The notes below the pieces were generated by a model that had not been told where the DNA came from, did no database searches, and worked only from the letters and a program-made list of their open reading frames with translations. Position numbers and translations under genes: made by a program. From sequence record PZ496580.1: a stretch of DNA of 64,000 nt, one strand, 5' to 3'. The DNA comes from a phage. Shown one piece after another: positions 37,725 to 38,336 of the stretch (position 1 is the stretch's first letter; each line of letters begins with the position of its first letter).

Positions 37725-37927
37725 TTACATTTAGGGCAATGCGGTTCTTTAATATAATACCCGTCTGTCTTTGGAACACTAACAGGAGCGGTTTTTATAT
37801 TGTATTCAGTGAAACAACGAAAACAAGTTACGTTTTCTACAGACTGACGTTTCACCCAATCACCGGAATATAGATCATTTTTATTTGTCATATTCAACCA
37901 CCACAATATTGATATCTGGAGTAGCAA
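37697..37927 (-). CDS. hypothetical Cys-rich small protein
   Basis: 76 aa, CFRC...CPKCKC. Confidence 0.45.
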   Translation of the reverse strand: MLLQISILWWLNMTNKNDLYSGDWVKRQSVENVTCFRCFTEYNIKTAPVSVPKTDGYYIKEPHCPKCKCRLYWSHL

Positions 37928-38336
37928 TATTAATGATCTCTTCTACACATTCCCACTCAAGGCCACCGATACCGCAACCGATTTTAGGAATATAGAAAGG
38001 CTGTATAGCACCTTCAAAAACATCATTGAGAGTCTCAAATCCTTTCAGGATAGCACCATATTCAGCATTTGGACCCGGTCGGAATTGGGTATAGAGATTC
38101 ACCCCGCACCAGTTATAACCATTAACTTGATGCGTCCAGACACTAAACCCACCCAGCTTTTCTACCTTACCGCGAGAAGTTTGCTTGTCAATTTCTAACG
38201 CTTGCGGGAACTCTTTCGCGATATCCGCAGCAATACCAGCGCCCATAGTATGAAAACAATTACAACCATGAATTAAATGACCGTTTCCTTGTTTAAACAG
38301 GGCGATGAGATCGCCCTTTACAGTATCAATAATCAT
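37881..38336 (-). CDS. macro-domain-like protein (putative ADP-ribose binding/processing)
   Basis: 151 aa; GDLIAL...HGCNCFHTMGAGIAADIA and IGCGIGG resemble macro-domain nucleotide-binding loops. Confidence 0.6.
   Translation of the reverse strand: MIIDTVKGDLIALFKQGNGHLIHGCNCFHTMGAGIAADIAKEFPQALEIDKQTSRGKVEKLGGFSVWTHQVNGYNWCGVNLYTQFRPGPNAEYGAILKGFETLNDVFEGAIQPFYIPKIGCGIGGLEWECVEEIINIATPDINIVVVEYDK

Follow-up and report, generated by a model that had tools for sequence, protein, structure and literature searches.

The 64,000-nucleotide (nt) stretch of phage DNA in record PZ496580.1 (the window, by which the whole of that stretch is meant) carries on its minus strand a gene for a 151-amino-acid (aa) protein, predicted to be a stand-alone macro domain and an ortholog of Tk.4 from phage T4, and probably serving to remove the ADP-ribose (ADPr) that the host toxin DarT2 attaches to phage DNA. 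The region is 96-98% identical to Krischvirus phages (RB49-like Straboviridae) of E. coli and Shigella, and the window is colinear with positions 14714-77041 of phage W115 except for three indels. The gene is not new, since dozens of near-identical Krischvirus genomes carry an annotation for it and its ortholog in T4 has received the name AdfM. Its features, in coordinates of the window, are these:

37881..38336, minus strand: open reading frame (ORF) of the macro protein, with an ATG start and 151 aa; a predicted stand-alone macro domain and the positional ortholog of T4 tk.4 (adfM).
38345..38350, minus strand: Shine-Dalgarno-like GAGAGG, read from the sequence, 8 nt 5' of the macro-gene ATG and directly past the stop codon of vs.
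38258..38270, minus strand: first active-site loop, H23-G24-C25-N26-C27, placed by family alignment and residue equivalence.
38085..38099, minus strand: 'NxYTQ' motif, N80-L-Y82-T83-Q84, placed by profile-to-PDB and L-INS-i alignments.
37962..37988, minus strand: second glycine-rich (diphosphate-binding) loop, P117-K-I-G-C-G-I-G-G125, placed by family and reference alignments.

The reading frame is not a product of chance, since its translation matches Pfam and PHROG profiles, homologues are widespread, and eight of the nine codons that differ from the copy in W115, a 97%-identical phage, are synonymous, leaving a single amino acid change. A pseudogene was rejected on the same grounds, namely how widely homologues occur and the excess of synonymous over non-synonymous codon differences (8:1). 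All of the motifs quoted in the initial annotation (VKGDL, HGCNCFHTMGAGIAADI and IPKIGCGIGGLEW) are present in the translation. At its 3' end the ORF shares 11 nt with the next gene (37697..37891), an overlap that suggests an operon-like, translationally coupled arrangement of the two.

That annotation had described the protein as macro-domain-like from its sequence motifs, and on this point Pfam, solved structures, a profile of the family itself and models of DarG all agree. Pfam Macro (PF01661) matches over the full length of its profile (positions 1-118 of 118; E=2.1e-6, 28.1 bits against a gathering score of 22), and PHROG 335, a family labelled 'phosphatase', matches at E=2.5e-62. A search of solved structures with the single sequence placed 5M3I, the DarG macrodomain of Thermus aquaticus, first (9.2e-8), ahead of BT1257, TARG1/OARD1 and SCO6735. 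A profile built from 31 family members retrieved BT1257 (4.8e-16), TARG1 (4.2e-15) and SCO6735 (4.3e-15) from the PDB, with weaker matches to yeast Poa1p (1.1e-12), T. aquaticus DarG (4e-12) and Mycobacterium tuberculosis DarG (2e-10). Profile searching thus points to the macro fold, with E values between 1e-15 and 1e-16 for solved macrodomains of the TARG1-like kind, and by these matches the protein is a predicted macro domain of the TARG1/ALC1-like class. Its segments MGAGIA and IGCGIGG had been read as ADP-ribose-binding loops, a reading borne out by the family: the loops M31-G32-A-G34 and I119-G120-C-G122-I-G-G125 correspond to invariant columns (G32/G34 and G120/G122) in an alignment of 123 members and are common to solved macrodomains. 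Within the family P117, G120 and G122 vary hardly or not at all, and all reference macrodomains have them.

Residue conservation among these 123 members was taken from an L-INS-i alignment of 132 sequences, references included, which agrees with the hidden Markov model (HMM) alignment; a default MAFFT alignment with the references, in which the 'NMIGQH' motif of SCO6735 and BT1257 was shifted by a gap, was set aside. N26 is present in every member (123/123), G24 in 122, Q84 in 121 and H23 in 119. The Q84 column holds the catalytic Lys in TARG1 (K84) and DarG (K80) and a Lys in PhiKZ gp104, whereas it holds Gln in SCO6735 (Gln85) and BT1257. Q84 and N26 align with Q85 and N27 of SCO6735, putting a Gln at the catalytic-Lys column and an Asn in the H-x-C-N loop, and N26 also aligns with N23 of PhiKZ AdfM, mutation of which lowers activity (PMC13309987). 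SCO6735 itself has no Lys/Asp catalytic residues; its Q85A mutant is dead and its N27S mutant nearly so. The enzyme is efficient at cutting thymidine-linked ADP-ribose off DNA, and it rescues DarT-exposed cells (PMC9411070). As judged from these alignments, the window protein carries the residues of a demonstrated DarT-reversing chemistry, that of SCO6735, and not those of DarG's chemistry.

SCO6735 and BT1257 (PDB 5E3B and 2FG1) are among the best solved-structure matches to the family profile and share with the window protein the H-x-C-N loop, the N-x-x-x-Q motif and the Gln at the catalytic-Lys column, yet their identity to it is only ~25%. By bit score the phage family forms a separate clade, scoring 43 bits to SCO6735 as against 178 between SCO6735 and BT1257, and SCO6735 further differs in its Val25, in a longer, Lys-rich mobile loop, and in being a cellular, DNA-damage-induced, non-phage protein. 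Human TARG1/OARD1, of the same macro class, has a Lys84/Asp125 dyad where the window protein has Q84 and G124; TARG1 too removes thymidine-linked ADPr from DNA (PMC9411070, PMC12879935).

With the macrodomain of DarG, the antitoxin of DarTG2 (PDB 5M3I and 5M31) and its top single-sequence match in the PDB, the protein shares the fold class, the conserved Asn (N26) and a presumed substrate. The PADLOC DarG model matches at 52.3 bits (E=1.5e-14) over model positions 3-141 of 329, which is the macro part only, and the NCBIfam DarG model NF048014 reaches 49.8 bits against a cut-off of 250, over positions 2-141 of 338 only. DarG differs in having a catalytic Lys80 where the window protein has Gln and in possessing a C-terminal DarT-binding domain, being ~330-340 aa long as against 151. 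No darT was found beside the macro gene, the neighbours being vs, vs.1, regB, zinc-binding proteins and tk. Because the models match through the macro part alone, the C-terminal domain and catalytic Lys are missing and no darT adjoins it, the protein is not a member of the DarG family, though it resembles an orphan antitoxin in its proposed action.

The same comparison bears on whether such a protein would need catalysis at all, or would neutralise DarT2 chiefly as a stoichiometric inhibitor or an ADPr reader, through attachment to the toxin or to what it produces. Catalytically dead SCO6735 Q85A, DarG K80A and TARG1 K84A still inhibit DarT in vitro (PMC9411070), and AdfB of phage ICP1 counters DarT through binding (PMC11481870). 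The window protein, however, lacks DarG's C-terminal DarT-binding domain, its match ending within model positions 3-141 of 329, and the strict conservation of N26, Q84 and H23 across the 123 members argues for an enzyme, so that we give a binding-only mode of action very little credence.

The window protein is 44% identical to T4 Tk.4 (E=5e-45, residues 1-150 against 1-152), and at 133 bits T4 Tk.4 has the highest score among functionally informative references; two homologues linked to the NAD+-rebuilding pathway NARP1 score 94 and 67, and SCO6735, BT1257, TARG1, DarG and PhiKZ gp104 score 28-43. Both are stand-alone macro domains of ~150 aa at the same locus with the same invariant H-G-C-N-C, N-L-Y-T-Q and glycine loops, and they differ in 56% of their residues, including IGAGIGKG in T4 where the window protein has IGCGIGGL. 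Full-length homology and shared position at the locus make the 151-aa protein the predicted ortholog of T4 Tk.4. In a preprint of November 2025 describing HIDEN-SEQ, tk.4 was the single significant T4 gene in a transposon screen on a DarTG2 host, and a clean tk.4 knockout was sensitised to DarTG2, leading to the name adfM, for anti-DarT factor Macrodomain (bioRxiv 10.1101/2025.11.20.689424). Removal of ADP-ribose from DNA by T4 AdfM was inferred by those authors without an assay (bioRxiv 10.1101/2025.11.20.689424). The initial annotation had proposed the gene as a candidate counter-defence against DarT, an idea that is essentially already published for the T4 ortholog and that the genetics of this syntenic relative match; for the window protein itself we infer the substrate.

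A second phage macrodomain called AdfM, gp104 of the chimallivirus PhiKZ, is likewise a stand-alone protein and shares the conserved Asn (its N23). It strips DarT2-added ADP-ribose from DNA, rescues DarT2 toxicity and is imported into the phage nucleus (PMC13309987). It belongs, however, to a DarG-like, Lys-type 'FPTK' sub-family, and is only 23-26% identical to the window protein (28-32 bits). The name AdfM thus covers two distinct lineages, a Lys-type one with PhiKZ gp104 and a Gln-type one with T4 Tk.4 and the window protein.

Placement of the gene in the tk-regB region, as initially described, is upheld by the two genes that bound the block. Around the macro gene lie the following features:

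39395..39817, minus strand: regB endoribonuclease (Pfam REGB_T4, E=1.9e-48).
39344..39372, minus strand: tentative sigma-70-like promoter TTGACT-17-TATTAT between regB and vs.1, matching the consensus at 10/12 positions in a consensus scan only.
38719..39309, minus strand: Vs.1-like lytic transglycosylase with a signal-peptide-like N-terminus (Pfam SLT, 26.1 bits, cut-off 21.3).
38352..38711, minus strand: vs homologue (valyl-tRNA synthetase modifier), adjoining the macro gene upstream as in T4 (PHROG 1256, E=1.8e-33; W115 annotation).
37697..37891, minus strand: 64-aa Cys-rich zinc-binding protein in the Tk.3/Tk.2 position (Pfam PF23903, E=1.1e-23; W115 annotation).
37482..37724, minus strand: 80-aa Cys-rich zinc-binding protein (Pfam PF23895, E=9.1e-34).
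36600..37196, minus strand: thymidine kinase gene tk, with which the syntenic block closes (Pfam TK, E=1e-51).

The order in the window, with which W115 agrees, is regB, SLT/vs.1, vs, macro, two zinc-binding proteins, a membrane protein and tk; in T4 it is regB, vs.1, (vs), tk.4, tk.3/2/1 and tk. The small Cys-rich neighbours mentioned initially prove to be the two downstream proteins, with hits to the Pfam families PF23903 and PF23895 (both 'Phage zinc binding domain'), and the two signal-peptide proteins are the upstream Vs and SLT-domain Vs.1 homologues, whose N-termini look signal-peptide-like when judged by eye. The N-terminus of the Vs homologue, MKKLTIIAMIAMMFSAGALA, resembles a cleavable signal peptide, as does that of its Vs.1 neighbour; export would sit uneasily with a role in modifying a tRNA synthetase of the cytoplasm. 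In T4, vs was the gene most depleted in minimal medium (HIDEN-SEQ preprint, bioRxiv 10.1101/2025.11.20.689424).

From the candidate promoter at 39344..39372, the block running from vs.1 through vs and the macro gene to tk could conceivably be driven as an early unit. The consensus scan gave 23 sigma-70-like sites in the region, no clear excess over the 17.7 +/- 3.7 in shuffles. Of the sites in the region the best, at 11/12 positions, is TTGACA-17-TATGAT, which has an extended -10 TG (38674-38702, minus strand). It falls within the 5' part of the vs ORF, where it could be an internal promoter, beginning transcription within vs and 5' of the macro gene, or a chance match.

Macro domains are versatile in substrate, phage copies having been predicted to target soluble ADPr derivatives (PMC9503650), and the RNA-centred neighbourhood formed by regB and vs lends some colour to the idea that the protein erases ADP-ribose from RNA or from other ADPr derivatives, such as CmdTAC-type marks on mRNA, ADP-ribosylation of RNA phosphate ends or TIR/Thoeris-type signals. 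We consider this improbable. Direct evidence for RNA-ADPr erasure exists for none of the family members. In the results of one study the Gln-type relative SCO6735 is reported to act neither on 5'-phosphate-linked ADPr, whether of RNA or of DNA, nor on RNA ADP-ribosylated at the 2'-OH, although the discussion of that study does state an activity on RNA phosphate ends (PMC11833690). CmdTAC is described as defending robustly against the T-even phages, a group that carries tk.4 (PMC11618068).

Beyond the window, the W115 genome encodes both enzymes that attach ADP-ribose and a further protein related to its removal. Two Alt-like ADP-ribosyltransferases (Pfam PF03496; record positions 112368-115322) and a gene annotated as ModB (9476-9979, without a Pfam match) raise the alternative that the macro protein undoes or adjusts the ADP-ribosylation of proteins by the phage itself, of the Alt/ModA/ModB type and directed at host RNA polymerase, EF-Tu, S1 and others, or else removes protein ADP-ribosylation by the host. 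Arginine-linked ADPr is a substrate of ARH-type rather than macro-type hydrolases, and as it is not known to be a macro-domain substrate, reversal of Alt/Mod modification is unlikely. The T4 ADP-ribosyltransferases modify arginine (PMC8120803). In favour of the alternative, proteins with Glu-linked ADPr are further substrates of SCO6735 and TARG1 (PMC9411070), but the transferase genes are distant from the macro gene, lying outside the window in W115 coordinates, and the macro family is widespread, with 2735 phage records; overall, a role in protein ADP-ribosylation seems to us highly improbable. The companion anti-DarT factor of T4, the NADAR protein AdfN/30.3, acts against DarTG1 (PMC11825919). 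W115 has a homologue of Gp30.3/AdfN at record positions 125565-126044 (Pfam PF08010, E=1.2e-38), also outside the window, and so has T4's pair of anti-DarT genes. The lineage thus has writers and erasers of ADP-ribosylation much as T4 does.

Homologues of the 151-aa protein were found by tblastn in 2735 of 50,697 phage records, a spread that fits a published figure of 41% for the share of myoviruses with a macro domain (PMC9503650). Phage GoldenSnicker has a 100% identical copy annotated 'phosphatase'; the W115 counterpart is annotated 'macro domain protein', and other Krischvirus records read 'phosphatase' or 'Tk.4 conserved hypothetical protein'. Outside Krischvirus the nearest relatives are Vequintavirinae proteins of rV5-like phages such as Bas59, Murica and phiWec191, at 67-69% identity as against 44% for T4 Tk.4, and a possible reading of this pattern is gene exchange between unrelated groups of E. 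coli myoviruses into a conserved T4-type slot. Within 6 kb of the phiWec191 homologue (67.5% identical), there are no NAD-salvage genes and only small hypothetical genes.

These public labels, which across the family read 'phosphatase' or 'A1pp phosphatase motif', accord with a different activity, that of an ADP-ribose-1''-phosphate (ADPR-1P) phosphatase of the Adpp/Poa1p type. Its substrate would be a small molecule and not DNA, for example ADPR-1P arising from the RES-domain NADase defences (aRES) or from side reactions of RNA repair. A purified example comes from the same phage macro family (the PHROG 335-type 'phosphatase'): Adpp of Vibrio phage Gary (KNV71_gp137) is an ADPR-1''-phosphate phosphatase needed against aRES through the rebuilding of NAD+ by NARP1 (January 2026, bioRxiv 10.64898/2026.01.28.702374). 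Gary Adpp is 94% identical to gp169 of Vibrio phage Morian, which we used as its proxy and which is ~33% identical to the window protein (E ~1e-15); a tblastn search with Morian gp169 retrieves 2728 phage records, close to the 2735 found with the window protein. Yeast Poa1p, also a phosphatase, has the same H-S-C-N-C loop and matches the family profile at 1.1e-12, although at the Q84 column it carries a Ser in place of Gln. In the characterised case, however, Adpp is encoded between Adps and Namat and is useful only together with these two enzymes, which rebuild NAD+. No homologues of Adps or Namat were found in the window or the full W115 genome (best tblastn E > 1), nor any among the W115 annotations, which removes the known context for a phosphatase role and weakens the case for it, as does the DarTG2 phenotype of the syntenic T4 ortholog. 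We judge a phosphatase role unlikely, while noting that it and DNA de-ADP-ribosylation are not mutually exclusive and that both activities could coexist in one protein.

The arrangement that accompanies the phosphatase can be seen in two other phages. In Vibrio phage Morian the macro gene lies between Prs-like (Adps) and Nampt-like (Namat) genes with RNA ligase genes flanking (2632-5638 of the stretch examined), and in Acinetobacter phage Aci02-2 it directly follows the Prs-like and Nampt-like genes, again flanked by RNA ligase genes (405-3974 of the stretch examined). This arrangement is NARP1-AP. Similarity to DarG HMMs was tried as a means of telling AdfM from Adpp and dropped, the window protein, T4 Tk.4 and the Adpp proxy scoring alike with both the PADLOC and the NCBIfam models.

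Other differences between the window and W115 lie away from the macro gene. Among the early genes just upstream of rI/tk, a 715-aa ORF (33675-35822, minus strand; indel boundaries ~33714-35730) is missing from W115 save for a 36-residue N-terminal remnant. Its matches are weak (Pfam Ig_3 at E=1.3e-4, below the cut-off, and PHROG 1149, 'Hoc-like head decoration', at E=8.9e-10), and it seems to be an Ig-like accessory gene that varies from strain to strain. A further indel, at 12228-12792, consists of ~565 bp found only in the window, and at ~55371 of the window a gene for an HNH homing endonuclease, between baseplate genes, is found only in W115 (67662-68402).

Taken together, the activity that best explains the macro gene, and that we hold to be the probable one, is that of an orphan DNA ADP-ribosylglycohydrolase countering the DarT2/DarTG2 defence. 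It is placed ahead of a phosphatase because the NARP1 genes were not found and because T4, with its DarTG2 phenotype, is the syntenic relative. Several points weigh against it. The DarTG2 phenotype is reported for T4 only, in a preprint and by genetics, and literature searches for biochemistry of T4 Tk.4-type proteins, in the form of an assay on ADP-ribosylated DNA, found only that genetic preprint. T4 Tk.4 is only 44% identical, and the closest relatives outside Krischvirus are the uncharacterised Vequintavirinae proteins. Position 24, a Gly in 122 of the 123 members, is Val25 in SCO6735 and Ile in BT1257, and it is the backbone of this SCO6735-specific Val25 that has been proposed to hold the catalytic water (PMC9411070). 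A single-sequence AlphaFold2 model of the protein was unusable (mean predicted local distance difference test score, pLDDT, of 37; predicted template modelling score, pTM, of 0.28), and the macro fold rests on sequence profiles. Finally, Morian gp169 has the same HxCNC, NxYxQ and GxG residues; motifs and likeness to DarG do not decide the substrate, since in both respects the Adpp proxy equals the window protein.

Under the favoured explanation, the protein would be a stand-alone, TARG1/ALC1-like macro-domain ADP-ribosylglycohydrolase, in effect an 'orphan antitoxin', probably made early in infection. It would bind the ADP-ribose that host DarT2 puts on thymidines, in TNTC motifs, of single-stranded phage DNA, and cut the base-ribose bond to yield free ADP-ribose and replicable DNA, allowing the phage to escape DarTG2. 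Catalysis would most likely follow the Gln-type route of SCO6735 rather than the Lys-type route of DarG and TARG1, with Q84, held by N26, positioning the distal ribose and a water being activated at the H23-G24 backbone. The macro family, the synteny, the homology and the residue conservation are matters of observation; a substrate and role in common with T4 Tk.4 and SCO6735 is what we infer for the window protein from them.

What this analysis adds is limited to the distinction between Gln-type and Lys-type proteins and to a caution that the family includes a phosphatase. Because the T4-type AdfM family has the SCO6735-type Gln and shares its active-site residues with Adpp, transfer of 'DarG-like' or 'phosphatase' annotations within the family needs care, and NARP1 context is currently the best predictor of role. 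A broader proposition, which we think unlikely, is that phage macro proteins of the Gln type, among them Tk.4/AdfM, Adpp and the window protein, form one promiscuous enzyme family, each member both removing ADPr from thymidine in DNA and dephosphorylating ADPR-1''-phosphate. If that were true, one 150-aa protein would blunt defences of two unrelated classes, DarTG2 and RES-type NADases, with the presence or absence of NARP1 deciding which activity pays off, and the Lys-type PhiKZ gp104 and the Gln-type T4 Tk.4 would represent convergent recruitment of macro domains with different chemistry.

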